Shown: positions 1 to 50,100 of the stretch, piece after piece
Numbering within the stretch: position 1 is the first letter of the stretch
How the letters are laid out: each line of letters starts with the position of its first letter
Virus record (IMG/VR): IMGVR_UViG_3300025630_000012
Reading direction: 5' to 3' (one strand)
Source of the DNA: an uncultured virus (IMG/VR IMGVR_UViG_3300025630_000012)
Taxonomy: Duplodnaviria; Heunggongvirae; Uroviricota; Caudoviricetes
Length of the DNA: 64,000 nt
Program-made: the position numbers and the translations under genes
Notes under the pieces: generated by a model
What the model saw: only the letters and a program-made list of their open reading frames with translations
Database searches by the model: none
Told to the model about the DNA's origin: nothing

Positions 1-26
1 TTTTTAGGGCTTAAATAGCCTAAAAG

Positions 27-182
27 ATGAGAAGAAAAACATACAAAAAGCAATCAGGGGATTCCATCACCCAAACGGCAGGGTTTAAGACAACCAAGGC
101 GATGGTTGGCGGAGCAATCATAATATGGGGTCTCTTATCCCTTTTCAAGTGGGCTAACGCGCCTGAAAACGTGCGTAGTTAA
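27..182 (+). CDS. small membrane protein (51 aa) carrying the YKKQSG motif
   Basis: Manually translated (below the ORF track cutoff): MRRKTYKKQSG...MVGGAIIIWGLLSLFKW...; followed by a terminator. Confidence 0.7.
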   Translation: MRRKTYKKQSGDSITQTAGFKTTKAMVGGAIIIWGLLSLFKWANAPENVRS

Positions 183-201
183 ACACAAACCGAAACCGAT
201 G

Positions 202-234
202 AAAGGGGAGCGACATTCAGTTGCTCCCTTTTTT
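202..234 (+). terminator. rho-independent terminator
   Basis: GGGAGCGAC-attca-GTTGCTCCC hairpin followed by a T-run. Confidence 0.8.
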
Positions 235-238
235 ATTT

Positions 239-317
239 CCGCGTGTATCCCCTCATGCTTATACCATGTCGAAAGGGTAGTTGGTTCACGCAGGTTCAAT
301 CCCTGCCACGCGGACAA
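239..317 (+). tRNA. non-canonical tRNA-like RNA, anticodon TAT (Ile), no normal D-arm
   Basis: Acceptor CCGCGTG/CACGCGG + A + CAA; T-arm GCAGG-TTCAATC-CCTGC; CATG-CTTATAC-CATG anticodon hairpin. Confidence 0.65.
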
Positions 318-346
318 AAAAAAGCCCCCTATCGTTGAGGGGGCTT
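316..346 (-). terminator. terminator of the minus-strand early gene (possibly bidirectional)
   Basis: AAGCCCCCT/AGGGGGCTT stem with an A8 run (U-tract on the minus strand). Confidence 0.7.
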
Positions 347-368
347 CGTTGGAGAGGGGGTGTTAAAC

Positions 369-755
369 TCACATCTGCAAAAGCATATCTGCAAGTTCCT
401 CACCAATGTTTGTCTTCTTGCACCCCTTGCGAAGTTCGGCTTCCCAAACCTCACGCATGGATTCGTTTTTTTCCGTCTTGTAAGCGTTGTAGCGTGAGAG
501 AATTTTGGAGGCATCGTTTTCGGATACGTCCCACGCCTCTGAAACATTTCGGAGCAAGACACTCTCGATGTTCATGATTTGAGCCAATGCCACGACCTTG
601 TTGTCGTCGTTGTCAGAAATGACACGCTTGTAGGCTTCGATATTGTCCTCTCGAAGACCGCCAAGGAAGTGAGTCAGACCATTGTGTGTCCACTCCGCGT
701 ATTCGGGCATTGTACGCACTTTGGGTGCGGTGGGTTGTTCATTCGTGATGTTCAT
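369..755 (-). CDS. hypothetical protein (128 aa)
   Basis: ORF with protein-like composition, followed by a terminator. Confidence 0.75.
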   Translation of the reverse strand: MNITNEQPTAPKVRTMPEYAEWTHNGLTHFLGGLREDNIEAYKRVISDNDDNKVVALAQIMNIESVLLRNVSEAWDVSENDASKILSRYNAYKTEKNESMREVWEAELRKGCKKTNIGEELADMLLQM

Positions 756-897
756 GAGAATGGGGGTTGGGGGGTTCGCTCATTTAGGATGAGGGCAAAA
801 GGTATTAAGGGTTTATAGTTAGTCCCACTTGACAATGCTGTATCGTTTGAACCAATATCTGCTCATAATGTTGGGGGTTTGGGGTTTAACTCTGATG

Positions 898-905
898 CTA
901 ATGTA
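898..905 (-). promoter_or_regulatory. possible Bacteroidota-type -7 promoter element (TACATTAG)
   Basis: Variant of TAnnTTTG with TTTG upstream on the minus strand; the same octamer occurs at 4466-4473 (+). Confidence 0.4.
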
Positions 906-948
906 AAGCGAACTTTACAAAAATCCAAACGTCAAAATAAAAAAAATG

Positions 949-1019
949 TTGTCCCGCAAGGATTCGAACCTTGAATGACTGAACCAAAATCAGTAGTGTT
1001 GCCGTTACACCACGGGACA
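949..1019 (-). tRNA. tRNA-Gln (anticodon TTG)
   Basis: Reverse complement TGTCCCGTGGTGTAACGGCAACACTACTGA-TTTTGGT-TCAGTCATTCAAGGTTCGAATCCTTGCGGGACAA folds as a canonical cloverleaf. Confidence 0.93.
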
Positions 1020-1119
1020 AAGAAAGAGGCTCTTGACGTTTCAAAAGCCTCTCCAAACAAATTTCATTTACTCTTCAATTCGTCTTTTGATGAGTGGGGC
1101 AAGTATAGGTTGGTTGCTT

Positions 1120-1305
1120 CTAAAAGTCAACCCCATCCTCTATTGTTTTTTGAAGTGACTTTCTATACTCTGATAAGAAGGATGATACTATCATTTTTGC
1201 CGTCTCTTTCTCTTTCCATGTAATGAGTTTGTAGTCCTCCAATGCGTCAGCAATTTTTGTGGAAGCCTCATCTATCGTAATCGCCCGTCTATTTTTTGAT
1301 TCCAT
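1120..1305 (-). CDS. hypothetical protein (61 aa)
   Basis: ORF overlapping the stop of the upstream methyltransferase. Confidence 0.5.
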   Translation of the reverse strand: MESKNRRAITIDEASTKIADALEDYKLITWKEKETAKMIVSSFLSEYRKSLQKTIEDGVDF

Positions 1306-1828
1306 AAAACTGAATGTCTTTGTGGTCTAAATCTAATGAAATTTGATATTCACTAAAAGCAGAATTTGGGTCAAGCGCGTGAATGAAATCACCTTGGTTC
1401 AGATTGCGGTAATAGTTAGCCCATTCAGGCACTTGTGTAGTAAAGGGGCTATCCGTATTCTTCGTTTTTGCCGTTCCATGTTCGGGTCTACCCGTAGTTG
1501 CACAAGTGACGACCATCAAACCTCCTTTTCGGACGAGGTGAAGCATATTTCGGAGGCTCTCTACCCAATACATATCGTGTTCGAGCATTTCGGTGCTAAT
1601 AACGACATCGGCCTTTTTTCTTGGCTTGAACTCGTGTGCTTTGCTGACGACATCCACGTTCTTACCTTCGCCAATGTCCACACCCGTATATTGTGCGCCT
1701 TCAAAATGAACTTTGTTATTCCCGTTAATGTCTAACGAACCAAAATCGTAGACGACCACATTTTCAAAAAAATGAGGAAACTTGTTTTTAACCGATTCAA
1801 CGTATTCGAATTGTGCCTTGTGTGCCAT
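1289..1828 (-). CDS. class I SAM-dependent methyltransferase
   Basis: Motif I VYDFGSLDING, YTGVD, DVVISTEMLEHD, and LVRKGGLMVVT. Confidence 0.85.
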   Translation of the reverse strand: MAHKAQFEYVESVKNKFPHFFENVVVYDFGSLDINGNNKVHFEGAQYTGVDIGEGKNVDVVSKAHEFKPRKKADVVISTEMLEHDMYWVESLRNMLHLVRKGGLMVVTCATTGRPEHGTAKTKNTDSPFTTQVPEWANYYRNLNQGDFIHALDPNSAFSEYQISLDLDHKDIQFYGIKK

Positions 1829-1849
1829 AGCTTAAAAAAATGATTTGAG

Positions 1850-2689
1850 ATGCAAGTTTACGACGCAGAAAGATGCGAATGGGGAAATGAATTGGTAAGA
1901 GTTGTTCCATTTATTTATCACGAACATTTGAACGGAAAGGATGTTGCGGTGGAAACCACCCGTGGTATGCGCTCCTTCTATTATTTTTTACCGAATGATA
2001 GAATAATTGAAAAGCACCGACATCGCTATAATTTACAGGGATTAAAAAAAACGGATATACCGCCCCAAAATCTCTACGCTGACGAACTCAATTACGAAAG
2101 GTGGACACCACCTCCGTACAAAAAAGATTTTTCAAACAAGCCACTTAAAATGCCGTTAAAGGGCTTTTCAAAAAGACGAGGTACAATTATTGTCAGCAAT
2201 AAACACAACAAAGAGTGGTTGTGGGAGGGGTTAAACACAATTCCGCTTGAAGTTTTGGATGAGATTTTTACACGGCTGACACCTAAATGGAATGTCATCT
2301 ACAATCGGCTCATGCCTCAATTCATTGTTGGAGACGATGACACCCTACAACATGATGAATTTGATGACGAGAGTATTTTGGTAAAGCACCCATCAGTCAT
2401 TGACATCAATAAGTTGTATTTGGACAATGCGCCTATGGATATTGGGGATTTTCAGTTGCGATTGTTCAGTAAGGCTGATAGGTTCATCAATGTACAGGGC
2501 GGTCTTGGTCATTTTGCTTCATTCTTTGGTGGCAGACAACTTTTTTACTTGGAGCGCAATGGGCACAAGCATATTGAACATCACAGGCTTAAAAACCTTC
2601 AAGAATGGCATTCGAGGTTAGGTGGCGCAGAAATTCAGGTAGCTACACGCTCTGACATCCTTGAAAAACTTGACTTTGTGGCTATTTGA
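1850..2689 (+). CDS. hypothetical protein, possibly glycosyltransferase-like (GT-B)
   Basis: 279-aa ORF; C-terminal ADRFINVQGGLGHFASFFG resembles a GT9-like signature; function uncertain. Confidence 0.5.
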   Translation: MQVYDAERCEWGNELVRVVPFIYHEHLNGKDVAVETTRGMRSFYYFLPNDRIIEKHRHRYNLQGLKKTDIPPQNLYADELNYERWTPPPYKKDFSNKPLKMPLKGFSKRRGTIIVSNKHNKEWLWEGLNTIPLEVLDEIFTRLTPKWNVIYNRLMPQFIVGDDDTLQHDEFDDESILVKHPSVIDINKLYLDNAPMDIGDFQLRLFSKADRFINVQGGLGHFASFFGGRQLFYLERNGHKHIEHHRLKNLQEWHSRLGGAEIQVATRSDILEKLDFVAI

Positions 2690-2784
2690 ACAAACAAGTG
2701 TTGAAAAACACCCAAATATATTCTTGGCAATACAGGTGGCGCGGTTTTACTTCGCAGTAATTGATAACCCCAAAACGAGTAGCT

Positions 2785-2970
2785 ATGACAATTCAAGAAA
2801 ACAACCGATTGATGCAAGAGCAGTTGTTGACACAGGCGAAGAAGTGCCGTACCAAGTACGAAAGCCTTTGCCGAAACCGCGATGTGATGCTCAAATCAGA
2901 ATTGAAAACGGAGTTGTTAACACGAGCCATGATTTTTGAGCGTGTTGCTCATAACTTGCTCATCGTCTGA
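2785..2970 (+). CDS. hypothetical protein
   Basis: Short helical ORF; ATG start chosen. Confidence 0.5.
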   Translation: MTIQENNRLMQEQLLTQAKKCRTKYESLCRNRDVMLKSELKTELLTRAMIFERVAHNLLIV

Positions 2971-3023
2971 CAAAATATCTTTCTACATTGTGCGTGAGTA
3001 GAGAAAGCAAAACAACAAATCAG

Positions 3024-15641: not shown

Positions 15642-15892
15642 GACCACTACCGAAATCATATATGTTGAGAAGCCCTCAACAAAGGCTTGCGATGCACGAG
15701 GAGATAGCGCAGACGTTGGATGACGTAAGTAGCACCTCTTTGCAAAACATCTACCGACAACTGCAAGATGTCAATGCAAAAAGAACTCTGATAAGAGAGA
15801 TTTTGATAAGCATGGATAAGGGCATGACGTTGGATGCCATTCTCGCGCAGATTGATACAACGATTCAGAACGACGCCTTATTTGAAGAATAA
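15638..15892 (+). CDS. hypothetical helical protein
   Basis: Coupled on both sides. Confidence 0.7.
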   Translation: MRPLPKSYMLRSPQQRLAMHEEIAQTLDDVSSTSLQNIYRQLQDVNAKRTLIREILISMDKGMTLDAILAQIDTTIQNDALFEE

Positions 15893-18800
15893 TGGATATT
15901 AGACAGATACAAAACGAGTTGAAGGCTTTGGAGTTACTCAATGACTCCGAAGCGGTAATCAACGATATTATGACCGCTACGGAGGGCGTAGAGCCTATGA
16001 ACGAGCGCGATAGAAAGGCTTGGATTCAAGACCACGCAATGCAGGGTCGTTTGAGATTGCTTGGCGACGCGGAGTATGAACTTATCTTCTGCGAAGAAAT
16101 TTCTAATGAAACATTGAAGTTACCACCCAATGCTTACGGCATTCGTGACGATGATTCAGGGCTTGGTGCTTTCTTGTTGAAGAAGTATAGCATCAATAAA
16201 ATCGTGGTTTCTTGCACCCTATACATGGCTTACAACGGGAAAGAAACTAATGCGGTGTTGTATCACGGAGCATACCCAATTTTGAGGCAAACGCCTAAAA
16301 AATTAGACGAAGTAACGGAACGTCAAGGGGGCAACGAATCAAAGTTTTGGAGAGAGGCATCAGCAAGTGTGTCGGTACAAAAAATTGGCCCGAACGATGT
16401 CATGGTGGCTAACTCTTGGCAAGATGAATTTATCAGGTATGAGAGCACGTCCGAACAAATTCGAAAAGACGCGCCTCCAAGCAATCTAATCCAAGAGGGT
16501 AAAGATTTATCAGAGCGTATCACCAACCTTCATTCGCTCAAACAAGAACTACCCCTTGCCGTATTCACCCTCTCCGAACAACAAAGAAAAGACCTTTCGA
16601 AATTTGCGGGCGAAGGCAGAAGCGTAAAAGTCGATGATGCTGATTTTGCGCAAGCCGTATTGAAATCCATTCCGACTTCGGATGGAGTGAGCATAGATAA
16701 ATGGGATTTGTTCGAATACAATTACCCAAATAATAAGGGAGGCGATGTATGGGCGGAAATTAGGCAGAAAAATACCCTTCTCAATCCCGTTAAGCTGATT
16801 GTAGATGGCAAATCATTTTTCTTTCCCGCACAAGCCATCAAACTCTTTTTGAATACCGCAGTAGGCTTGGAGTCAAGTCAGGAATTTCGTATTTGGAAAT
16901 CAGACAATGGAATCATTCTCGATGCAAGCGCGGTTTCGTTTAGAAAAATGACCATTCCTATTGATGGGGAATTAAGGGAGGTTAGTATCCCTGAAATTTC
17001 TCCTATCGCTTTGGAGATAAAGGACTACAACGTCTACCCTTCAACGTATGTGACGATTGACCTTGCGAACTTCTACGCCAAGCCTATGACCGCAGAAGAG
17101 TTTGAACTTACGCAGGTCGAGGTTCTTACACTTCCTAATGCCGTCCTTGCACGTCAGATGAGAGTGCCTCATGGGGACAAGCGTCTGCCAATGAGTGCAG
17201 TTTCACTTGATAAGTGGTCGAAAAGTACGCAGTCGTATAGTGACGCGGTAGAATTGATGAACGAGCACCTTGGATACTACACCAAGTTGAACGAGGTCGA
17301 GGTAAGGGTCAATAACAACGCTATCTATGAACAAACCCGTACTGCCGTAGCGAACAGGATGACCAAAAATGGGAAAGTGAATGAAGCCCGCTTTCGTGAG
17401 ATTATGTCAAAATATGCCTACACGATAGAGGAAACATTTTTCAACTTAAATCCTGATTTTTCTGACCCTGAAAAGTTGTTGGGGTATTTTTTGGGTATGG
17501 GGGTAAAGCCCAATGCTTTGTATCAAAACGATGTCAGTCCATACCGCCTGTTGTGTGCTCGTCTGCTTGGTATCGACTATGCAGTAAACTACTTGGCATT
17601 ATGCAAGCGCAGTTGTGTCAAGGGGCATTTGTTTATTGACGAATTTGATAAGGACGACAAACCCGTCTTTACATCCGCTGATACGTGGTTGGACAAGAAC
17701 ATTTTCCTGCGTGAATACACGCTGAAAGATTCGGAGTTCTTGGACAATTTGAATAAATTCTTTGGCGACGATGCGGCAGAGGTATTGGAGCATCATGAAA
17801 ACCTTCTCAAAGAGTTTTCGCCCAAGTTTATGAAGCTATATCATGGTACGCGACTTGATTACGAAAAGTTGGTTCGAAACAAGGGTGTTGGAAAAGCATA
17901 TCTGCCCGTTGTAAAGTCAAAAATCGACATTGAAGAAGAAGAGGGTCAAGAGGTCGCTACTACCGAAGCACAACCTTTCGATATGTCGCAAGAGGTGACG
18001 CGAATCACCACGACCAATGGCATATTTACCGATGAATTTGTCAGTGAATTATATAAGGAATTACTTCAATCAGGACATGGAAAACCATCGAGTGAATTCT
18101 TGGAAAGGTCGAGAGAAAAATTCATGGAAGAATTTGGTGTAAATAGATATGATAAGCCCGCTCGGTTGCAAGATGCGTCATATAATTACATGAGCAAAAC
18201 GGGCAATGACCTATATGGTAGAGCAAGCGACAAATTGCGCTACAATGCTCTTGACAAGTCAGAGTCGATACGATTTTTTTACGAAGAACCCGACGCGCCC
18301 AACGAAGGGCCGTGGCGTATCCTTGCCAACGGCATTACGATAACCAACAAAGAGTTGGGTGACAACGATGATGAGCGTAAGACCTTAATCATCAGACACT
18401 CGCGTAGTGACGACGCAATCAAAAGAGGAGGGTGGTCGAAAGTGAATAGCGAAAATATGCGGGATGTCTTATGGGGCTACGTACAGGACATACGCGACTT
18501 GGGCTACGAGGATGGTGATAGGCGGGCATTGGCAAAAATTATCGCAGATAGGGCTATTGGTCTTTACCGCGAAATTAAGTCCCAAGCTATGGTCGATGGT
18601 GCAGAGTTGCATAGCCTTGGTATAGCCCTTGCTTTGCCCGAAAATGAGGTGGGTGCATACGAGAAGATATTCAATCTTAAATACAACAATTTCTCATTGC
18701 CTCCTGTAAGCCGAGTACCTATATTCTTGGAAAATATGAGGCACTTCGGTGATTTGAGCAAGTTTGTAAGCGACTCATACCAAGAGGATGGACGCTTGGC

Positions 18801-21800
18801 GGGTTTCAGCCTTCGTGAAGCACAAAAGGAAGGTTTGAGGTTCTTGGCGGCAAAAGGCAATAGCGGTCTTCTCGCTCACGAGGTGGGCTTTGGTAAGACC
18901 ACATCTTCGATAGCCAAGGTAAGTGACCTTTTCCTTCGTGGTGACGCTAAAAGGGTGCTTATCAGCGTCCCTAACCCTGTTTATGGTTCGGGCAATTGGG
19001 AAGCCGAAATTCGTGGGGCGCGTAACGAAGACGGACGTAAGAAGAGCAACGGGTTGCTTCCGTCAAACATCAACCTTGTGAAGTTGGGTAGCTTAAAGTA
19101 TTCAGACCTCTTGGGAAATAAGATTACGCCCGACAACCCTGAATATGCAGAGAAGAGCGAGGGTACGGGTTACGATGGGCCGATGTTGTACTCGGAAAGT
19201 GACATGAAACTCATCGACACCATCAATAAGTCGTCAGAAAAACTCATAGATATTGTAGGCGGTGCAGTTGGTCGGTATGGAGAAGATGACAATTCAGCTA
19301 TCACGCCACGACTCATCAAGTACGGCCTTGGTAGAGAATATGATTGGCGATACATAGAGCGAAACCCCTTCTTCAAGAAGTACGAAGATGCCGACAAAGC
19401 CAATTTGGTGCGCCTCAACGGAGTTCCTCGCCAAGAATTGACGGGCACGACAACTATCAAGTCGGGCGATTTTGACTTTTGGGATATAGGAACTTCGACC
19501 TACATGGAGTTAGGTCAGGTAGCCGACATCACCGATGGGTCAGTAGCGAATGAAAATTCTCTTATCAAGTCCGTCTACTCCGTGATGAAAGAGATAGTGC
19601 CTGACTTGGAGGTGGATGATGTAGGCGGTGATTTGGAAGTTCTCTTTGGCAAGTTGCAAAGCATCCACGACAAGTACAAAAGAGGCTACGACGAGTTGTC
19701 GCAGGACGGCACAATGAAAATTCAGAAACGCTCTGCGCCAATGTTAGGAGGCGAGATGTTTCCGCGTGGAGGCAAGAAATTTAAGGATAGGGGTGGCAAT
19801 GACATTCGTGAACTTGATTGGAATGGTAAGGAGGCCATCGGAATTAAGAAAGAAGCGACGGCATTGGTTATTGCAGATGAACTTTTTGAGGTTCACAAAA
19901 ACAACAAAGACCCCAAGAAGAAGGTGTACTATTGGCCTTTCTTGATGACGCGCTCGTACTACGAAAAAATCGTCGTTCCGTGGGCGATGGAAAAGATTGA
20001 TGGGGGCATAAGCAGAGATGGGTTACGAGATGCCCTTCTTCAAGAATTTACCTTCTTCGATTACAACAATAAGAAAAGTGGCAGACAGCCTGACGAGATG
20101 AAAGCCATAGCGTTGGGTCAGATAAAGACGGCTTTGGAGTTGCAGATGACAGAAGAGATAGCTTTCTTCTTCAAGATTCTAAAAGAACAACTGCCTTTCT
20201 ACTTGGGTAAATTTAAGGGGTGGGCCTCACGCGACAACACCATATTGTTGTGTAGCCACTTGGCGATACCCAAGATTAGCGTAAGCGAAAAGTTTGCTGA
20301 AAGAAGCATAGGCTTTATGATGGGTATCTATGACAAGGCACAACCCCGACAACGCCTTCATTTCAAAGATGGAGTCAATGTCGCAGAAGGCGATGGCAAT
20401 GCAATGGCGAGACCTCTTGATTCGGGCATTATGAGCAAGACGCAAAAAGAAAAATTGTTCCTTTCTCAATATCGTGGTCTTGACGTGCGTAGGCTTAATA
20501 CCGACGCTCTTGTAGTCGATGAGGTTCACAACTTCAATCGCGCTTTCAAGGTCGTCAAAAAAGGTTCTAAATCCTCATACTCATACGGCATACGCGCACA
20601 CATGAAAGGCAAATTGGGCAGAAAAGATGCCCAATGGGTGTATGACACGTTTGCCAACTACGACATACGCGGTGAGGTGCAGAACTTCATTGCTCTATGT
20701 ATGTATTACCAAGACCGCGCCAACTACATCAGCGAAGGATTGAAGAGAAAGATTCAAAACACCATCTTCCTTTCAGCAACTCCCTTCACCGATGACAACT
20801 TCCAAATGTTGTCTCTCTTTGGTGCGTTGAGCACGGAAAAGCTGATGCAAGCCAATGTCTTTAATACGTTCGACTTCTTCCAATTGTATGCGAATGAGTT
20901 GTGGCAGAAAGACATCGACTATCAGAATAAATACTCGCTCTTCCCAAAGATTGCGAGTTACAAAAACGTATATGCTCTTTCGCAGATGATTCGGTCGTTT
21001 ACGAACTTCAAAATCAGCGATGCGGAGATTGAAGCCGATAGACCACAAAAGGTCGTGGTGGGTACTGACGCACCACAACTCAAAGGCGTTCAAGACGATG
21101 CGTTGTCGAAGGTTTTGAGCCAAGTTCCGTACAACGATGTTCAGCAGAAGATGAACGATGACTTGGAAAAGTACATCACGTTGCAAAGTGAGTCAGAACT
21201 GACATACAAGAAAGAAGACATCGAAAAGGCGGAAAAAATCTTTGAAAAACTAAACAAGAAAAAAGGCAAGGCCACCCCTGCCGACCCTCTTGTCAAGGAG
21301 TTGAAGACGCTACTTGATGTTAAAACCAAAAAGGTAAAAAAGAAGACAATCATCGTTGATGTGGCCTATGAATTGGAGGACTACGACAGGATTGAAGAAC
21401 TTTTGGATGAGATTTTGGAAATCGACGAAGAGAACCAATTTGCCAAGGATGTCAGACGCTTTATGGACTCGTCCTTCTCCGAGGGCGCAGAGGGCGAAGA
21501 TGTCGATGCCGACGACGACGACGACGACGACGACGATACGGAAGAATCCGTCAATGCAGGTTCGGTAAAGAACGCATCACTTTCGCAAGCGCAACAAATC
21601 GCGCAAAGGGCATTGGAGGCTTCGCGGACTCAACAACTTGTTTTGATTTCGCCATACTACTTGACGATTAACAACGACAAGAAACTTATGAATCCATACT
21701 TGCCTACGCTCGATGGTACGATGAGTGAAAACGCCAAGAATGTGGTCGAAAATAGCCCGAAGCTACTTTACGCTTGTAAGGCTATCGCAAAGGTTCTGAA

Positions 21801-23601
21801 TCACGCTATCAATGAAAAAAAGCAGGTGTTGGCAGATAGCAGAAACCCCATCTTGGGTCAGGTCGTCTACGCCAACAACTATAAGTTTAGATACCACGGA
21901 CAGGACTTCTTCTTGTTCGACCTGATGACGCAATACATCATCGACAACAACAAAGATTTGTTGAAGCAAACGGGAAAAACGTCAGACGAAGAATTGCGGT
22001 CTCTCTTTGCATCAATTGATGGACGGACAAAGAAAATCAAAGACCCCGAAACGGGAGTTACGATTGACGAGAAGTCATACATCACGGAGCAGTTCAACGC
22101 AGGAAACATCTTGGTGTTGTTTGGAACGGAAACGATTCGTGAGGGTATTAACCTTCAAAAGAATTGCCCGCTCATGTACATCTTGCAGGTGGGCTTCGTA
22201 CCCGTAACATATATGCAGTTACACGGACGTATTTGGAGGCAGAAAAACCCATACAAATACGCCTTCCTTGTCAATGTGTTGACGCAGAATAGCATCGACG
22301 CATTCGTGTACTCGAAACTTGACCAAAAGATTCAGAGTGTACGTGAGATGTTGGAGGGTGATGTCTACGATGGAAATACGACGCAGTTCGACGTGAACGT
22401 CAGCGAAATCAAAACCAAGCTGATTAACGACCCCGTAAAACTTGCCGATATGCAATGGGAAGATTTACGTGATGAGTTGAGCAGACAAAAGGATAGGTTC
22501 TCGCAAGAGTTGACCGCGTTGCAGGGATTGGAGTCAAGCTACCCACGTGCCGTGGAAGCATACAAGGAAAATTCACAAAAAATCAACGGAATTACAAAAC
22601 TGATTCACGATTGTGAACTTTACTTCACGGGCAAGTTGTTTGCCAACATGACGAATAGAAAGCGTCAGGACGCGGAGATAGACAAATTGGTGGCAACGCA
22701 ATACCCCGCGCAGTTTGGTGGCGATGAGCAACTCATGCAAGATTTTGAAAAAGAAATCAATTCGGGAATGGGCTTGAAAAAGAAGTTTTTGAATAAGGAC
22801 GGCTCTGCCAAATACAAGACGCGCAAAGAAATCGCTGATGACGTAAGACCAAACGTGAGCATTACCGAGATGACAATTGATGAGGCAATGGAAGAGGTCA
22901 AGCGAGCAAACGCTTCCGATGAGGTGACGCAATCGCAGTTCCGATTGTCCATCATTGAGCCTACCTACTTTGAAGAAACGACGTCTTTGAGTTCATTTGT
23001 GACGGACTGCCAAAACATCGACGACGACGTGATTTCAAGTCGCGCCAAGCAGAACAAGGAGATGGTTGGAAAAGAGCGAACCGAATGGGAAAATGGAGTG
23101 CTTGAACCCGCGCAGAAAATAGTTGAGGCTTCGGCTATTGGTGAAGATGCGGTTCGTGAAATCATCGACACTTTCAGCATGAACCAAACGTCAACGAACG
23201 TGAGAAAGGTGCGTTTGATATTTGCTTTGGCATCCGTGATGCAAGCGGGCATCGTTGACAGGCCACAGGATTGGGGTACGCTTCCTTTCTACGGCCTCTA
23301 CAACAAGTTCAAGTCGGGCGAGGAGGCAGAAAGCATTTCAGCGTTTAACGACATTGTAGCCTCTCAAAAGGTGGGCGAGAAGTCCGCTACGCTTGAAGAT
23401 ATTCCGAAACTCATCGAGGAAAAGACAAAGGCAGAAGCCAATTTCGAAAGTCGTCTGAACAACGAGTCAGCCGAGAAAGACAAATTGGTGAAGTATTTTG
23501 AAGAAAAAATCAATCAAAAGAAGGGCGAAAAGATTCCGTCAGTAGAGGATAGGGTCAACGACTTGGAAGCCCTCTTCCCTTACTTAATCAGAACGAGATA
23601 A
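15892..23601 (+). CDS. giant DarB-like SF2 (SNF2-type) helicase/ATPase, 2569 aa
   Basis: LAHEVGFGKT, VVDEVHNF, FLSATP, IREGINLQ, QLHGRIWRQKN. Confidence 0.85.
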   Translation: MDIRQIQNELKALELLNDSEAVINDIMTATEGVEPMNERDRKAWIQDHAMQGRLRLLGDAEYELIFCEEISNETLKLPPNAYGIRDDDSGLGAFLLKKYSINKIVVSCTLYMAYNGKETNAVLYHGAYPILRQTPKKLDEVTERQGGNESKFWREASASVSVQKIGPNDVMVANSWQDEFIRYESTSEQIRKDAPPSNLIQEGKDLSERITNLHSLKQELPLAVFTLSEQQRKDLSKFAGEGRSVKVDDADFAQAVLKSIPTSDGVSIDKWDLFEYNYPNNKGGDVWAEIRQKNTLLNPVKLIVDGKSFFFPAQAIKLFLNTAVGLESSQEFRIWKSDNGIILDASAVSFRKMTIPIDGELREVSIPEISPIALEIKDYNVYPSTYVTIDLANFYAKPMTAEEFELTQVEVLTLPNAVLARQMRVPHGDKRLPMSAVSLDKWSKSTQSYSDAVELMNEHLGYYTKLNEVEVRVNNNAIYEQTRTAVANRMTKNGKVNEARFREIMSKYAYTIEETFFNLNPDFSDPEKLLGYFLGMGVKPNALYQNDVSPYRLLCARLLGIDYAVNYLALCKRSCVKGHLFIDEFDKDDKPVFTSADTWLDKNIFLREYTLKDSEFLDNLNKFFGDDAAEVLEHHENLLKEFSPKFMKLYHGTRLDYEKLVRNKGVGKAYLPVVKSKIDIEEEEGQEVATTEAQPFDMSQEVTRITTTNGIFTDEFVSELYKELLQSGHGKPSSEFLERSREKFMEEFGVNRYDKPARLQDASYNYMSKTGNDLYGRASDKLRYNALDKSESIRFFYEEPDAPNEGPWRILANGITITNKELGDNDDERKTLIIRHSRSDDAIKRGGWSKVNSENMRDVLWGYVQDIRDLGYEDGDRRALAKIIADRAIGLYREIKSQAMVDGAELHSLGIALALPENEVGAYEKIFNLKYNNFSLPPVSRVPIFLENMRHFGDLSKFVSDSYQEDGRLAGFSLREAQKEGLRFLAAKGNSGLLAHEVGFGKTTSSIAKVSDLFLRGDAKRVLISVPNPVYGSGNWEAEIRGARNEDGRKKSNGLLPSNINLVKLGSLKYSDLLGNKITPDNPEYAEKSEGTGYDGPMLYSESDMKLIDTINKSSEKLIDIVGGAVGRYGEDDNSAITPRLIKYGLGREYDWRYIERNPFFKKYEDADKANLVRLNGVPRQELTGTTTIKSGDFDFWDIGTSTYMELGQVADITDGSVANENSLIKSVYSVMKEIVPDLEVDDVGGDLEVLFGKLQSIHDKYKRGYDELSQDGTMKIQKRSAPMLGGEMFPRGGKKFKDRGGNDIRELDWNGKEAIGIKKEATALVIADELFEVHKNNKDPKKKVYYWPFLMTRSYYEKIVVPWAMEKIDGGISRDGLRDALLQEFTFFDYNNKKSGRQPDEMKAIALGQIKTALELQMTEEIAFFFKILKEQLPFYLGKFKGWASRDNTILLCSHLAIPKISVSEKFAERSIGFMMGIYDKAQPRQRLHFKDGVNVAEGDGNAMARPLDSGIMSKTQKEKLFLSQYRGLDVRRLNTDALVVDEVHNFNRAFKVVKKGSKSSYSYGIRAHMKGKLGRKDAQWVYDTFANYDIRGEVQNFIALCMYYQDRANYISEGLKRKIQNTIFLSATPFTDDNFQMLSLFGALSTEKLMQANVFNTFDFFQLYANELWQKDIDYQNKYSLFPKIASYKNVYALSQMIRSFTNFKISDAEIEADRPQKVVVGTDAPQLKGVQDDALSKVLSQVPYNDVQQKMNDDLEKYITLQSESELTYKKEDIEKAEKIFEKLNKKKGKATPADPLVKELKTLLDVKTKKVKKKTIIVDVAYELEDYDRIEELLDEILEIDEENQFAKDVRRFMDSSFSEGAEGEDVDADDDDDDDDDTEESVNAGSVKNASLSQAQQIAQRALEASRTQQLVLISPYYLTINNDKKLMNPYLPTLDGTMSENAKNVVENSPKLLYACKAIAKVLNHAINEKKQVLADSRNPILGQVVYANNYKFRYHGQDFFLFDLMTQYIIDNNKDLLKQTGKTSDEELRSLFASIDGRTKKIKDPETGVTIDEKSYITEQFNAGNILVLFGTETIREGINLQKNCPLMYILQVGFVPVTYMQLHGRIWRQKNPYKYAFLVNVLTQNSIDAFVYSKLDQKIQSVREMLEGDVYDGNTTQFDVNVSEIKTKLINDPVKLADMQWEDLRDELSRQKDRFSQELTALQGLESSYPRAVEAYKENSQKINGITKLIHDCELYFTGKLFANMTNRKRQDAEIDKLVATQYPAQFGGDEQLMQDFEKEINSGMGLKKKFLNKDGSAKYKTRKEIADDVRPNVSITEMTIDEAMEEVKRANASDEVTQSQFRLSIIEPTYFEETTSLSSFVTDCQNIDDDVISSRAKQNKEMVGKERTEWENGVLEPAQKIVEASAIGEDAVREIIDTFSMNQTSTNVRKVRLIFALASVMQAGIVDRPQDWGTLPFYGLYNKFKSGEEAESISAFNDIVASQKVGEKSATLEDIPKLIEEKTKAEANFESRLNNESAEKDKLVKYFEEKINQKKGEKIPSVEDRVNDLEALFPYLIRTR

Positions 23602-44438: not shown

Positions 44439-47165
44439 ATGAAGGGAAAAAATAAAAAGATTTTAATAGCAACAATCGCGGCTTTGGCTTCGGGGGGCAT
44501 TCTTTATGCCGTTCGTAAAAAGCAATCTGATGGGGAAGATAAATCCCTTGATGGAGATGAGCCGATTGTTCCGCCAATTCCGACTTCTATTTATGACGGA
44601 GAGCCTGTTGATGACGACTTTGGTGGCGGTGGCGTAGGTGATGACGAGGTTGTTGATGACGACTTTGGTGGAGGCGGAGGTGGTGGTAGTATCAATGCAG
44701 TTTTATGCCGTGGATTGGATGAGAATGGAGCGGAGATAGCTGATTTAGTCAATCAAGGCGAAGAGTGTCCTGCCAATACGCCATTTGGCCCTGACGACGA
44801 CATTGCATTCGACGATTACGTGTATGACGCATATCGGTGCTTTGATGTTGACGAAAATAATCAGATTGTCGAAGTAGAAAAAGAATTTACGGAGGTATGC
44901 GGGGTTGATTATCCCGACCACCCATTTAATACATTAAGCGACGCTCTTCTTTATGCAGAAAATCCCTCGGAATTTGAGGGTTGTACGGATGAAACGGCAT
45001 CGAATTATGATTCAGAGGCATTGTTTGACGATGGTTCTTGCGAATATGAAGCAGAACCCGTTTTGGGTTGTACAAACCCCGATGCTCTCAACTATGACGA
45101 CACGGCAACCGAAGATGACGGCACGTGTGAGTTTGATGAAGAGGTGGTAGCGGGTTGCATGAATCCTGATGCTCAAAACTATAACGACCAAGCAACAACG
45201 GACGATGGTACTTGCATTTTTGATGTTACGTGCTTCTATCTTGCAGATGGTGGCGAAGTATTAGAGCAAAATTTTGAATTACAGGCAGGGGAAACCTGTT
45301 GGGAAAGCGTAGATGCGTATATGTCTCCATCGCTCCCGACATTGCGCCTTGGTTACTTCGATACTTTCGAGTCAGCAGAGGCTTACGCCCAAGGAGTCAG
45401 CAGTTGGGATGATGATGTTGTCGTATGCTTGATGGTTGATGAAACGCTCCCATATCCCGAAAGCATCTATGAGGAGACGTTACCTGACCCCGAAACACAA
45501 TCGTGTGTTGATATTGGGGGTTTTGACCCTAACGCAACATCGGATGAGGCTATGGAGTTGGTTGCTACTCAAATGCACAATGAATGGCTTGCGAGCCAAG
45601 AGGTATTGGGATGCACCGACGAAACGGCCACGAACTTTATGCCCGATGCTACGGCAGATGACGGGTCATGTCAATACGCACCTACTACGCAGAATTGTAC
45701 TTGGCATGATGCACAATGCAATCCCGTAAGTGTTCCTAACCTACCTGTTGAAGTAGATGGCGTTGCAGTTACCTGCACGGATTTGGGATATGTTGAATTT
45801 GGCGATGAGCAAACCGCTATCGACTTCTGCGAGGCAAACGTAGCCTTGGCTACGATGTCTTGCTACTCTTATGATAGCGATGGCGTATTTATTTTAGAAG
45901 ATATAGATGCTATTGACCTTAATACAGGTGAGGCAAAGACCTGTACATCTTTGGGGTATTTCGAAATGAACCCTTCGGGTCTTGCTGATGCCACCTCCGC
46001 CTATCAAGCAGAGTTTGCTGATAGCAAGGTTGGATGTACTGACCCAAGCGCAACAAACTATGACCCAACCGCAATTACGGATGACGGCAGTTGTATCCTT
46101 CCCGAAGTGCCTATGCCAAGCGGAATCATTGATGCTGAATACGTCACAACAAATTGGTTTAATGACTGCGCTCAAACCGATGCAACGACTACCGATATTC
46201 TAACTCTACCTATACAATCAGGAGAGTGGGGTAGTGGTTTCTTCATTTCTGATGTGAATAGTATCATCGGATACGAGTGTTACGACGCGCAAGGAGAGCC
46301 TACGGGTACACCACCTCCACTTGTTTACGGGTGTACCGACCCTGATGCCTTGAACTACGATGCTACGGCTAATCAGAATGACGGAACGTGTGAGTATCCT
46401 GTCGCAAATGTCGAGGGTTGTACTGACTCATTGGCAATAAACTACAACCCTGATGCGACCTTGGAAAATGGTGCGTGTGAATATGGCATTGAATTTACAA
46501 GTTCTACGCCCGCAGACCTTACGCAGTTGAGTACCTGTGGTTCAGTTTCCGTGAGCCTTGCAAATCAAATCAATACAAGTGATGGCTCAGTTGGAGCGGT
46601 GAACTATATTTTGGGTCAGGCTTGTTTCGACCCCGCCACAGGCAATAGCGTTTATTACACGCCACCCGCAGAGAATGAAATCACTACGGCTACTGATGCA
46701 CAAAACATTTTGCTTGCGTGTTACGGCGGGACATCATTTGAGCCAAGCGTGGTTTTTGAAATAAATGGATTATCATATCCAATAACTGCGGCTGAATTTA
46801 ATTCAACAATTGGTTGGAATTGTTTAGACCCTGACACAGGCGAGGTGGTTCAAGTTTTAACTGATGGCGGTGGCGATACTAATGCTCTTGCGAGAAACTC
46901 TGACAAGAGCCTTAATACGGGTGACTTTGACACCTCGGAGTTTGACAATGATATTTTAGGTAGTGCAGGTGAACCCCCATCTACGATGGTTGGTGACACT
47001 ACGACTACAACGGAATTAAGTAATCAAAAATCCTTAATTTCGTCTACTGAAAAAACCACAAAAAATTTTGGCGGTAATTCGTCAAGTACGGGCGGGTGTT
47101 TAGACCCCATAGCCCTGAACTTTGATGAAGGCGCAGAATTTGACAACGGGTCTTGCATCTACTGA
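44439..47165 (+). CDS. N-anchored acidic Cys-rich repeat protein
   Basis: 8 GCT/M/L-D/N..N(Y/F)...DG.C repeats. Confidence 0.85.
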   Translation: MKGKNKKILIATIAALASGGILYAVRKKQSDGEDKSLDGDEPIVPPIPTSIYDGEPVDDDFGGGGVGDDEVVDDDFGGGGGGGSINAVLCRGLDENGAEIADLVNQGEECPANTPFGPDDDIAFDDYVYDAYRCFDVDENNQIVEVEKEFTEVCGVDYPDHPFNTLSDALLYAENPSEFEGCTDETASNYDSEALFDDGSCEYEAEPVLGCTNPDALNYDDTATEDDGTCEFDEEVVAGCMNPDAQNYNDQATTDDGTCIFDVTCFYLADGGEVLEQNFELQAGETCWESVDAYMSPSLPTLRLGYFDTFESAEAYAQGVSSWDDDVVVCLMVDETLPYPESIYEETLPDPETQSCVDIGGFDPNATSDEAMELVATQMHNEWLASQEVLGCTDETATNFMPDATADDGSCQYAPTTQNCTWHDAQCNPVSVPNLPVEVDGVAVTCTDLGYVEFGDEQTAIDFCEANVALATMSCYSYDSDGVFILEDIDAIDLNTGEAKTCTSLGYFEMNPSGLADATSAYQAEFADSKVGCTDPSATNYDPTAITDDGSCILPEVPMPSGIIDAEYVTTNWFNDCAQTDATTTDILTLPIQSGEWGSGFFISDVNSIIGYECYDAQGEPTGTPPPLVYGCTDPDALNYDATANQNDGTCEYPVANVEGCTDSLAINYNPDATLENGACEYGIEFTSSTPADLTQLSTCGSVSVSLANQINTSDGSVGAVNYILGQACFDPATGNSVYYTPPAENEITTATDAQNILLACYGGTSFEPSVVFEINGLSYPITAAEFNSTIGWNCLDPDTGEVVQVLTDGGGDTNALARNSDKSLNTGDFDTSEFDNDILGSAGEPPSTMVGDTTTTTELSNQKSLISSTEKTTKNFGGNSSSTGGCLDPIALNFDEGAEFDNGSCIY

Positions 47166-47169
47166 TACA

Positions 47170-50100
47170 ATGGACAAGAACACAAGAAAATTACTTTTAA
47201 TTGGTGGCGCAGTCGCAGTAGCGGGTGCATCGGTCTATTTGATAAATAAGAGACGTAAAGACCTCGAAAAATCTGCCACCCCCGAACCAATTGAACCCTC
47301 TGATATGCCTATTGGCCCTACCGAACCCACGTCAGTCCTCGGATGTACTGACCCAAGCGCATTGAACTACAACCCGAATGCTACGGCAGAAGATGGTTCA
47401 TGTGTATTTGCATCAGCACCCACAACCGAAATTATTTATGGGTGTACCGACCCCGACGCATCGAATTACAATGCGTCCGCAACAAATTCGAACAATTCTT
47501 GCCAATATGCTTCGGGATGCACAAACCCGAATGCGTCGAACTATGACGATACGGCATTTTTGGACGATGGTTCTTGTGTATTTCCTGACCAACAGATTCC
47601 TACTTCCGATGTGGTTTACGGATGTACGGACTCGCTTGCGCTGAACTATGACCCAAGCGCAACAAATAGCAATAATTCTTGCGTATATCAAGAGGGATGT
47701 AAGCAATCAAGCGCATACAACTTTGACGAAAGTGCAATGGTCGATGATGGCTCTTGCATCTTCTCCACCACCCAATTTGCTAATGCAAATGAAGTGATTG
47801 AAGCGATTTCGGAGGTGTGTCCGCAGTATTGGTCTACGAGTATTCTTACACAAGTAAACGCGCAGTCATATCCCATGACAACGGCAGACGTAAACCAATT
47901 TCTTAATGCCGAGTGTTTCACGGATGTAGGGGGTTCTATCATGCCCCAAAGTGAGACGTACATCGCGGGGTGTATGGACTCCGCCTCTGCGAATTACAAT
48001 CCTGATGCCGACTATGATGACGGCTCATGCGTTTACGTCGGAGGGTGCTTGAATCCCCAAGCACAAAACTATGACCCTTCCGCTCAATACGACGATGGAA
48101 CGTGTGATTTTGGAAGTGGGCCTGAATACAACATCGAAAGCGAGCAATACGTGCTCGGTTGTCGTGATGAAGCCGCGAGTAACTTCAACCCAACTGCCGA
48201 CTATGATGACGGAAATCAATGTGTTTACATTGGTGGGTGCATGAACTCTATTGCCGATAACTACAATCCTTCGGCAGTATATGATGATGGCTCTTGTTTG
48301 TTCGAAAACTCTTTGTCTTCCCTTCCAAGTAGTACAACCTACAAACTTGGTTGTATGGACGAGGTGGCGTCTAACTATGACCCCACCGCCACGATGGATA
48401 ACGGAAGTCAATGTCTTTACATAGGCGGATGCCTTGCGTCAAACGCGGACAACTACAATCCTTCGGCACAATATGACGATGGCTCGTGTGTATTTGATGG
48501 CGTAGCCTCGGTAATGCCCCAAAGCGAAACTTATGTGATTGGTTGTATGGATGAAACTGCATCCAACTACAACCCGTCCGCCACGATGGACAACGGAAGT
48601 CAATGTGTCTATATCGGGGGGTGTCTTGCCCAAAACGCGGACAACTTCAATCCTTCGGCACAATATGACGATGGCTCGTGTGTGTTTGATGGTGTAGCTT
48701 CGGTGATGCCATCAAGCGAAACGTATGCGTTAGGATGTACGCACGTCCAAGCCACAAACTATGACCCCTCGGCTAACTACGACGATGGGTCGTGTATATT
48801 TAAGTTTGGGTGTACCGCCTCGCTTGCCGACAACTACGACCCAACCGCAGTTGTCGATAATGGCTCATGTATGTTTGAGGGAGTTCAGAGCGTTATGCCT
48901 GAATCAGAGGCTTATTACATAGCAGGTTGCACCAATATCAATGCAACGAACTATGACCCCATCGCCAACTTTGACGATGGCTCATGCTTGTTCAAGTATG
49001 GTTGTACCAATCCTCTCGCGGATAACTACGATAACGAAAGCGCAGTAGACGACGGCTCTTGCACCTTCGAGGGCAATCAAAGCGTGATGCCGACAGGCGT
49101 AACGTATTCGTTGGGATGTATGGATGCTGACGCATCTAATTACAACCCGAATGCCACAATGGACGACGGAAACCAATGTCTCTACATTGGAGGTTGCATG
49201 AATACAGGGGCGGACAACTTTAACCCCGAAGCGCAATACGACGATGGCACGTGTATGTTCGATGGGGTGATGTCCGTTATGCCCGAAAGCGAGCAATACG
49301 TTCTCGGATGTATGGATGAATCCGCGAGCAACTACAATCCGAACGCCACGATGGACAACGGGTTGCAATGCGTCTACCTCGGAGGGTGTATGTCTCCCAA
49401 TGCAGACAATTTTGACCCAACCGCACAATACGATAATGGCTCGTGTATTTTTGATGGAATTTCTCAATCAATTCCTGAAAGCGAGCAGTACAATTCAGGA
49501 TGTACCAATGTGTACGCCACGAACTATGACCCTTCCGCAGATTTCGACGATGGGTCGTGCGTGTTCAAGTATGGATGTACCAATCCGCTTGCGGACAATT
49601 ACGTGAATGATGCGGTCGTTGATGACGGCTCATGTTTGTTCGAAGGAAATCAGAGCGTTATGCCCGACAGCGAATTTGATTATATCGCAGGGTGTACGAA
49701 TCCAAATGCCACGAACTACAACCCCTCCGCTGATTTTGACGATGGGTCGTGCCTGTTCAAGTATGGATGTACCAACCCGCTTGCAGATAACTTTGACTCT
49801 ACCAATACGATAGACGACGGCTCTTGTACGTTTGAAGGCAATCAAAGCGTGATGCCTGATTCCGATGCGTTCTATATTGCGGGTTGCACGAACAATAGCG
49901 CAACGAACTACAACCCCGAAGCCAACTACGATGATGGGTCATGCTTGTTCAAGTATGGGTGTACGAATCCAAGTGCTGACAACTACGATAGCACAAGCGC
50001 GGTAGACGATGGTTCTTGCACCTTCGAGGGCAACCAAAGTGTCATGCCGACTTCGGAATATGGCACTTACACGTCGGGATGTACGAATTATGATGCCACC

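Follow-up and report, generated by a model that had tools for sequence, protein, structure and literature searches.

A phage-borne tRNA-Ile(UAU)-like gene with a putatively block-transposed core, and the family to which it belongs

The first few hundred nucleotides (nt) of a 64,000-nt stretch of DNA from an uncultured virus of the class Caudoviricetes (IMG/VR record IMGVR_UViG_3300025630_000012; this whole stretch is called the window below) raise the question of whether a working transfer RNA (tRNA) can be built with the parts of its core joined in an unfamiliar order. On the plus strand, at positions 239–314, lies a 76-nt element with the acceptor stem, T-arm and anticodon loop of an isoleucine (Ile) tRNA with the anticodon UAU, which has no D-arm at the usual place and in which a D-loop-like sequence follows the anticodon arm instead. 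We consider it likely that this element is the gene of a functional phage elongator tRNA-Ile(UAU) with a block-transposed core.

The tRNA-Ile(UAU)-like features listed in an earlier, sequence-only reading of the locus are all present. The acceptor stem is formed by the 5′ strand CCGCGUG (239–245, tRNA positions 1–7) and its partner CACGCGG (307–313), with 7/7 Watson–Crick pairs; the discriminator is A314, and U8-A9 occupy 246–247. The anticodon arm (254–268) comprises the stem CAUG (254–257)/CAUG (265–268) and the loop CUUAUAC (258–264; CT-TAT-AC on a CATG/CATG stem in the DNA), with U33 at 259, the anticodon at 260–262 and A37 at 263, and the T-arm (290–306) comprises the stem GCAGG (290–294)/CCUGC (302–306) and the loop UUCAAUC (295–301). 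Since A314 is the discriminator, the gene ends at 314 and not, as had been proposed, at 317, while the proposed start at 239 stands; no CCA is encoded, the next letters being CAAAAAAAA. The claim that a D-arm is missing is confirmed as well: the spacer between A9 and the anticodon stem measures only 6 nt (UCCCCU, 248–253). Within it, after U248, the triplet CCC (249–251) provides the 5′ strand of a long-range helix, the 3′ strand of which, GGG (275–277), lies beyond the anticodon arm. The helix is separated from the anticodon stem by C252 and U253 (252–253) on one side and by the connector UCGAAA (269–274; U-N-G-R-A-A in the family) on the other, with U269 opposite U253. It is followed by the D-loop-like sequence TAGTTGGT (278–285), which forms part of a D-loop analogue, UAGUUGGUUCA, at 278–288; positions 278–289 read as RNA are UAGUUGGUUCAC, the last of them being C289, directly before the T-arm.

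The element is thus like a canonical tRNA-Ile in its 7-base-pair (bp) acceptor, 5-bp T-stem, UUCRANY T-loop, 7-nt anticodon loop, U33, A37 and A73, and unlike the canonical cloverleaf in that it and its relatives have no D stem-loop after A9, the D segments following the variable region instead. Because it departs from the four-arm order although it has most of the features of a tRNA, it falls outside the canonical tRNAs that the models of Rfam and ARAGORN describe. Indeed, ARAGORN reports nothing at 239–314, and Rfam 15 at the gathering score gives no tRNA match there; the only tRNA gene that either of them finds in the window is a canonical tRNA-Gln(UUG) at 948–1019 on the minus strand. A permissive Rfam scan of positions 150–420 (E ≤ 10) returns 15 weak unrelated matches, none of them to RF00005. 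The expectation that standard scanners would miss such an RNA also proved right for the relatives described below, since ARAGORN misses 120 of 121 family elements and mistypes the remaining one as Ser, while calling 123 ordinary tRNAs within 300 nt of these elements. In its mitochondrial mode the program makes calls that overlap 6 of the 121 elements, only one such call having the anticodon tat, and a tRNA is annotated at the site in none (0/9) of the deposited phage records that carry the element. A covariance model of the family (R1), the seed alignment of which includes the window sequence, scores the element at 92.5 bits (E 7e-26) as the sole family-level match in the 64 kb, and the tRNA-Gln (949–1019) at 12.2 bits; full members of the family score 78–93 bits, divergent members 39–50 bits and ordinary tRNAs at most 27 bits.

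Does the element have relatives? A sensitive blastn search of 50,697 deposited phage genomes matched its odd core (window 241–303) at 76–82% identity in seven deposited records, the phages matched being Rhodococcus phage Peregrin, Microbacterium phage Magritte and Streptomyces phages Coruscant, LilMartin, MulchMansion and Angela; the anticodon stem varies among them in a compensatory manner (CAUG/CAUG, CAUU/GAUG, CUCG/CGAG, CUCC/GGAG), and the anticodon is UAU or GAU. Further queries added the crAss-like phage cr130_1 and a rodent-gut phage, bringing the total to nine records. Three IUPAC patterns, which differed in the part of the molecule that they did not constrain, were run over IMG/VR viral contigs, and each retrieved at least 117–118 loci. 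Pooling all sources yielded a set of at least 166 distinct sequences, every one with at least six of the seven acceptor pairs and the T-loop; 129 of the 166 have the anticodon TAT, 34 have GAT and three have arginine (Arg) anticodons. The first pattern was also run against prokaryotes, using one genome per species for 185,579 species, and gave only 15 matches, of which four are due to chance (4–5 acceptor pairs, no T-loop) and one is truncated by the end of a contig; the three genuine members whose surroundings were inspected sit in arrays of 14, 36 and 38 tRNA genes. The sources of the family include phages of Actinomycetota hosts, crAss-like phages and many uncultured phages, and the family is large and mostly phage-borne. 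As for the window itself, a megablast search of positions 1–3000 found no match among the deposited phages, and an exact 39-mer matched none of the viral contigs. Identical or related copies of the element occur in aquatic metagenomes (a read search of four DNA-contig runs), and DNA of the window was met again in metagenomes from freshwater, salt marsh, estuary and seawater.

The alignment of these sequences bears directly on whether the element is a functionless relic, left behind by the decay of a tRNA gene or by a phage attachment (att) site. The lack of scanner calls would agree with decay, and tRNA fragments are common at att sites of phages. The structure examined consists of the acceptor stem (columns 1–7/70–76), the long-range helix (11–13/37–39), the anticodon stem (16–19/27–30) and the T-stem (53–57/65–69), and its cells are paired in 98.3% (117 sequences) or 97.8% (150 sequences) of cases, compared with about 65% after shuffling (65.8% for the 150 sequences); in 18 of its 19 secondary-structure pairs both partners have changed, the figure for all pairs scored on the 150 sequences being 19 of 20. 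Structures slid by 1–3 columns have at most 50% of their cells paired (at most 48% with the 150 sequences), and RNAalifold derives the identical structure, long-range helix included, from the alignment alone. All four helices covary: compensatory changes are found in 7/7 pairs of the acceptor (97.9% of cells paired; 150-sequence alignment), in 4/4 pairs of the anticodon stem, in 3/3 pairs of the long-range helix (99.8% of cells paired) and in 4/5 pairs of the T-stem, the fifth of which is invariant. The consensus is a three-way junction in which position 9 leads to the anticodon arm with no D stem-loop intervening. A relic is contradicted by this preservation of every helix through compensatory changes over 166 distinct sequences, as well as by the presence of both acceptor strands and by a core that does not vary even at places that the retrieval patterns did not constrain, so that decay is almost certainly not the explanation, and the check for homologues and covariation that the sequence-only reading had called for came out in favour of a maintained RNA. 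Two U-U mismatches recur in the alignment, one at the second pair of the T-stem (columns 54/68, 17 of 150 sequences) and one at acceptor pair 6-67 (columns 6/71, 10 of 150).

The invariance just mentioned extends over most of the unpaired core. Columns 8–10 read TAT in 88/88 distinct sequences retrieved with a pattern that placed no constraint on them, and U248 is invariant where the pattern left it free. Column 14 (C252) is C in 150/150 sequences, though unconstrained in one retrieval pattern, and column 15 (U253) is T in 86 of the 88 sequences in which it was free. The connector shows little or no variation in four of its columns (31, 33, 35 and 36); where it was left free, it reads TAGAA in 70 of 88 distinct sequences, TTGAA in nine, TCGAA in five and otherwise in four, and both C252 and A274 are invariant despite being free. 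In the anticodon loop, column 21 (U33) is T in at least 90% of the sequences and column 25 (A37) is A in 150/150; the T-loop GTTC is likewise invariant.

The same comparison settles the register of the long-range helix. The sequence-only reading was right that pairing continues beyond the anticodon stem, yet the pairing it had drawn, CCCT (250–253) with AGGG (274–277), is one base off. That register is the minimum-energy choice for the single sequence, but the family variants CTCC/AGAG, ACCC/AGGT and CGGC/ACCG can pair solely in the arrangement 249–251/275–277, and the alternative is therefore rejected. Where the helix was left free, its types are CCC/GGG (69), CUC/GAG (25), ACC/GGU (12), CGG/CCG (5) and CAC/GUG (2), with four more paired types making up the rest; it is imperfect in only 2 of 119 matches.

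What, then, is the relationship of this core to that of an ordinary tRNA? The arrangement fits the segment order 1–9, 22–47, 10–21, 48–73, in which the 5′ strand of the D-stem and the D-loop would have come to stand between the variable region and position 48. Under this block-transposition model, U248 would correspond to position 22, C249–C251 to positions 23–25, C252 to position 26 and U253 through U269 to positions 27 through 43, while C270–A274 would serve as the variable-loop analogue and linker. GGG 275–277, which covaries with 249–251, is read as positions 10–12, making the long-range helix the analogue of the D-stem; in the D-loop analogue, U278 becomes position 13, A279 position 14, G280 position 15, G283-G284 positions 18–19, U285 position 20 and A288 position 21, and C289 takes the place of Y48, which would make it the base that forms the Levitt pair with G280. 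On the same model, U248 may face U278 in a U-U pair closing the D-stem analogue, and G271 may pair with C252 in the manner of 26-44, with AAA leading into the D-stem strand. Since the 5′ D-stem strand and the D-loop follow the variable region, the junction is three-way rather than four-way. The model was examined in silico by placing alignment columns 37–51 behind column 9 in 159 distinct sequences and submitting the products to ARAGORN, which called 0/159 in the native order and 159/159 after the move, with the expected anticodon in 156.

The segment that would have moved behaves like a D-loop. The stretch following the long-range helix reads U-A-R-N-N-G-G throughout, except for one sequence with U in place of R, and the family shows no variation at U8, A9, A14, G18 and G19, in the C-A preceding position 48 or in the T-loop GTTC; with the A21 nucleotide also present, the whole tertiary-contact set (U8, A14, R15-Y48, G18, G19 and A21) can be found with its D-loop members on the relocated segment. 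Positions 15 and 48 combine, in 166 distinct sequences, as G-C (95), A-U (48), G-G (18), G-U (4) and U-G (1), never as A-C (0), and thus appear to follow the pattern of a Levitt pair, the tertiary contacts themselves being predicted. The 18 members with G15-G48 are mostly also mismatched at pair 7-66. The proposal that a D-loop-like sequence located 3′ of the anticodon arm could still build the elbow of a tRNA hence finds support in the covariation of the long-range helix, the 15/48 combinations and the identity nucleotides, to which we now turn.

The bacterial Ile identity set includes A73, U20, A35, U36, A37 and A38, whereas for bacterial ArgRS the main determinant is A20, along with C35, U/G36 and A/G73 (both as given in passages of PMC9976931). 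The window element has the nucleotides of the former set, namely A314 (A73), the anticodon UAU, A263 (A37) and U285 (U20). Among the members with Ile anticodons (UAU 129, GAU 34), A73 occurs in 163/163 and position 20 is U in 161 and C in two; in the three Arg-anticodon members of the 166-sequence set, G73 and A20 occur in 3/3. A prospective scan in which A20 was required and the anticodon loop was left free retrieved ten loci, and all ten have Arg anticodons (ACG 5, CCU 4, UCU 1); the discriminator is G in seven of them, and CCA is encoded in seven. Position 20 is thus A in 13/13 Arg members overall. The variation of the anticodon within the family, which could have counted against a tRNA, does not do so, as the anticodons are UAU or GAU (Ile) or else Arg only, each with the matching identity nucleotides. 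With regard to the base 3′ of the discriminator, it is C in most of 85 distinct sequences, the full CCA occurring in only six.

One would not expect this coupling of identity nucleotides with the anticodon to persist in a gene that had decayed, in a mere decoy or in a processing signal. The last of these deserves consideration in its own right, as the acceptor/T-arm minihelix could recruit RNase P and RNase Z to a long phage transcript, the rest of the element being incidental, and the location of family members inside tRNA arrays and between genes would suit such a role. A processing signal, however, needs neither an invariant U33/A37 loop limited to Ile and Arg anticodons, nor a conserved D-loop with covarying positions 15 and 48, nor identity nucleotides, and we regard it as very improbable.

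Further insight comes from the genomic setting, for which 60 distinct elements were sampled with 4 kb on either side. A canonical tRNA gene occurs within 4 kb of 53 of the 60 and within 300 nt of 35, and the canonical tRNAs lie on the strand of the element in 434 cases and on the opposite strand in one. At the 12 loci with a canonical tRNA-Ile nearby, this tRNA has the other Ile anticodon in 12/12 (UAU element with canonical gat in eight, GAU element with canonical tat in four, the same anticodon in none). In Magritte, the element (GAU) occupies an unannotated gap within a tRNA array, and the 26 canonical tRNAs of this phage include none for Ile, Met or His. In Coruscant, the element (also GAU) comes directly after the annotated part of the tRNA array, on its downstream side, and canonical Ile(tat) and Ile(gat) are present besides it; in Peregrin, the element (UAU) is in an unannotated gap among protein-coding genes, about 5.5 kb past the last ARAGORN-called tRNA, and a canonical Ile(gat) is present. 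The idea that the element serves as the sole tRNA-Ile of a phage accordingly holds in Magritte and fails in Coruscant and Peregrin.

These data have to be weighed also against the possibility that the element is a non-decoding mimic of a tRNA, keeping its anticodon arm and shape for binding and acting as a decoy or sponge for defence nucleases of the host that target tRNAs, for modification enzymes or for other factors that bind tRNAs. An odd core could alter which enzymes recognize the RNA, and the Coruscant element, being redundant with canonical tRNA-Ile genes, could be accommodated by such a role. A mimic, however, needs no joint switch of discriminator, position 20 and anticodon of the kind seen in 163/163 Ile and 13/13 Arg members, nor an anticodon complementary to that of the neighbouring canonical tRNA-Ile, as seen in 12/12 cases. 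Likewise, no conserved partner gene accompanies the family: an all-against-all blastp comparison of 750 open reading frames (ORFs) around the 60 elements revealed no widespread neighbour, the best protein cluster being present at 7 of 60 loci, and the neighbours that are held in common are ordinary phage genes (ThyX, dUTPase, HNH, WhiB). We know of no Ile-specific tRNA-cleaving defence system. According to passages of PMC13056530 (citing van den Berg 2023), defence by tRNA cleavage is widespread and the tRNAs of phages evolve so as to evade it; among the tRNA-cleaving systems surveyed in those passages none is Ile-specific. With nothing in the data specifically favouring a decoy, we think a mimic improbable.

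Some individual loci add detail to the picture of the family. Immediately upstream of the Ile(GAU) element in Magritte is a second, divergent member (73446–73522; L371:18447-18523; 39 bits) with the Arg anticodon UCU, A after GG, the helix CGG/UCG and a shorter connector; a canonical tRNA-Arg(tct) is found in the genome too. The Coruscant element spans 73025–73101 (L003:1497-1573), with the end of a nucleotidyltransferase gene 13 nt before it; an annotated FtsK-like coding sequence begins inside the element, at 73077, and the start codon of that coding sequence may therefore be annotated too far upstream. One viral contig bears two GAU members in tandem on the minus strand (L250:91-167 and 184-259), with the D-stem analogues UCC/GAA (one mismatch) and CCU/AGG. 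A tRNA array in a Clostridia metagenome-assembled genome contains a divergent 83-nt UAU member (L531:7567-7649, minus strand; 49.8 bits) with a connector of 13 nt instead of 6, the helix CUC/GAG and A15/U48, and shares this array with a standard 76-nt GAU member. Finally, in a chromosome contig of an Achromobacter anxifer isolate (L529, 12600–32500), ARAGORN lists 38 genes in about 14 kb, made up of 37 tRNA genes, of which two could not be typed, and a gene resembling that of transfer-messenger RNA (tmRNA); the array includes a family member of the Arg(CCG) type with encoded CCA, plus an 86-nt canonical-looking tRNA-Arg(ccg).

Returning to the window, the element is flanked by two hairpins. 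The upstream one (206–236, plus strand) consists of GGGAGCGAC/GTTGCTCCC followed by TTTTTTATTT; it was read from the sequence, not being in the scan that listed the downstream one, and looks like the terminator of an upstream small ORF or a part of a 5′ leader. The downstream hairpin (321–347, minus strand) is terminator-like, has T-runs on both sides and begins 7 nt past the gene; it ends the minus-strand ORF 369–755 and perhaps the tRNA transcript too. The window contains 63 long ORFs, 59 of them on one strand, and PHROGs comparisons of 31 large ORFs named few of them (a replication initiator, methyltransferases, an HNH endonuclease); all this has the look of a portion of an uncultured phage genome. 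Two giant plus-strand ORFs stand out, one (15892–23601, 2569 amino acids) with weak PHROG matches only, to a family of unknown function and over a DNA methyltransferase stretch, and the other (47122–53238, 2038 amino acids) with no PHROG match. The codon ATA is used 227 times in the window, i.e. for 21.5% of Ile codons or 11.8 times per 1000 codons, and CAA accounts for 73% of the Gln codons in the 63 long ORFs, in line with the tRNA-Gln(UUG); hence, both tRNA genes of the window match heavily used codons. This usage would fit with codon supplementation, judged from the codons of the phage.

On the basis of the fold, the family, the identity nucleotides and the setting, we infer that the gene would be transcribed and its product processed, charged and used in decoding. 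RNase P and 3′ processing would excise the RNA from a transcript, and CCA would be added. The 3-bp D-stem analogue (249–251/275–277) would stack on the anticodon stem to give a long hairpin followed by a single-stranded D-loop, and the stack from the anticodon to the elbow would have about ten layers (4 bp, U-U, C-G, 3 bp, U-U), the same number as in a normal tRNA (5 + 1 + 4). The three-dimensional contacts expected are those of an ordinary tRNA (U8-A14, R15-Y48, and G18/G19 with the T-loop). Host IleRS could then charge the RNA by way of A35-U36, A37, A73 and U20, EF-Tu could carry it through the normal 7/5 acceptor/T branch, and the phage would gain AUA decoding without lysidine, hence without TilS acting on the RNA. 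UAU-bearing tRNA-Ile can indeed function in bacteria without TilS, as reported in passages on a Bacillus subtilis G34U suppressor tRNA-Ile1 (PMC3919564) and on the Mycoplasma mobile tRNA-Ile2(UAU) (PMC3575796), both of which resemble the window element in using UAU for AUA.

Several observations weigh against a functional tRNA-Ile with a transposed core and an L shape. On its own, the 76-mer has a folding energy of −23.5 kcal/mol and a z-score of −1.7, 9 of 200 shuffled sequences being as good, and the reverse strand folds better (z −3.4); as the single 76-mer is no more stable than shuffled sequences, the support for the fold is comparative and not thermodynamic. Control moves with neighbouring boundaries also restored ARAGORN calls (111–159 of 159), wrong insertion points restoring fewer (20–155), and therefore the transposition is supported while the exact edges of the block are not fixed. 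The L shape is deduced from conserved nucleotides, and the behaviour of positions 15 and 48, which have undergone about 20 changes each on a weak 75-column tree, comes down to six independent contrasts on supported branches, 4–5 concordant and none opposite (p about 0.06), which is not significant given the relatedness of the sequences. As for the minor Ile determinants of Escherichia coli, the window element has C4-G69 but G12-C23 and A29-U41, and C4-G69, U12-A23 and C29-G41 vary freely across the family. No sigma-70-like promoter was found upstream of the gene on the plus strand, and the T-run-bearing, terminator-like hairpin described above stops only 2 nt upstream of position 239. Coruscant has both canonical tRNA-Ile genes, and its element is therefore redundant there. 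Finally, E. coli IleRS charges UAU-bearing tRNA-Ile poorly, and on E. coli ribosomes such a tRNA does not distinguish AUA from AUG (as stated in parts of PMC3575796), so function would depend on the host.

If the element is a functional tRNA, its core might serve an additional purpose, such as leaving U34 unmodified and limiting wobble towards AUG, escaping enzymes that recognize the D-arm, or preferring phage messages. A precedent for the first may be the UAU suppressor tRNA of B. subtilis lacking tilS, which works with U34 unmodified and shows weak AUG binding (passages of PMC3919564), and the family is enriched in decoders of rare codons (UAU, CCU, UCU and CCG). Nevertheless, members with GAU and ACG have the same core, and the fold is therefore not tied to anticodons with U34. 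Such a purpose, which would refine the decoding role rather than replace it, seems to us about as improbable as a mimic.

How does the family compare with other unorthodox tRNAs? D-armless mitochondrial tRNAs do without the contact between G18G19 and the T-loop and require adapted partner proteins. Those of mammals (tRNA-Ser(AGY)) and nematodes (tRNA-Ser), as portrayed in parts of PMC4013460, PMC7609411 and PMC9427863, are similar to the family in having a short connector between acceptor and anticodon stems and no D hairpin, but they are organellar, degenerate and flexible, whereas the family is phage-borne and has a canonical T-arm. Because the family keeps a D-loop and a D-stem analogue, its members are not D-armless tRNAs of the mitochondrial type. 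A second point of comparison is provided by the allo-tRNAs and the 8/4 tRNA-Ser/His (Mukai et al., PMC5389517), which, going by sections of that paper, are likewise non-standard and mined from metagenomes, with some of them in phage clusters and UAU frequent among the allo-tRNAs. These, however, have 8/4 or 9/3 arrangements and the D-arm in its usual place, while the family, with members of 76–77 nt, is 7/5 with a reordered core. The circularly permuted tRNA genes of Cyanidioschyzon share with the family an order of segments that is not that of textbooks. In these genes the 3′ half comes first, and a circular intermediate restores a normal tRNA. In the family, on the contrary, the acceptor strands are terminal and only an internal block is moved, and since both acceptor strands are terminal, the gene is not a circularly permuted one; to our knowledge, there is no pathway that would restore the normal order from the moved block. 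We found no description of this fold in Rfam 15 or in the open-access literature and bioRxiv, a search that included the conserved motifs as text. All known bacterial tRNAs were stated in 2024 to be cloverleaf-shaped (in a passage of PMC11551756).

Taking the argument from the window to the family as a whole, we are inclined, if only just, to think that phages of many bacterial phyla carry working non-cloverleaf elongator tRNAs, for Ile and more rarely for Arg, that have a transposed core, adopt the L shape, are charged and are used by the ribosome, and that may have been selected to escape host enzymes reading the D-arm, such as defence tRNases and modification enzymes. If this is true, the L shape would be attainable with a different connectivity of the chain in natural translation systems, and tRNA folds other than the cloverleaf would not be confined to organelles but would also include this one, invisible to the current tRNA finders and phage annotation, so that inventories of phage tRNAs would be systematically incomplete. 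Cultured systems are at hand in Streptomyces with Coruscant and its relatives, Microbacterium with Magritte and Rhodococcus with Peregrin. Such pairs could reveal which parts of a tRNA are read by RNase P, the CCA-adding enzyme, IleRS and ArgRS, EF-Tu, modification enzymes, defence tRNases and the ribosome, and the fold could provide synthetic biology with a natural scaffold for the design of orthogonal tRNAs.

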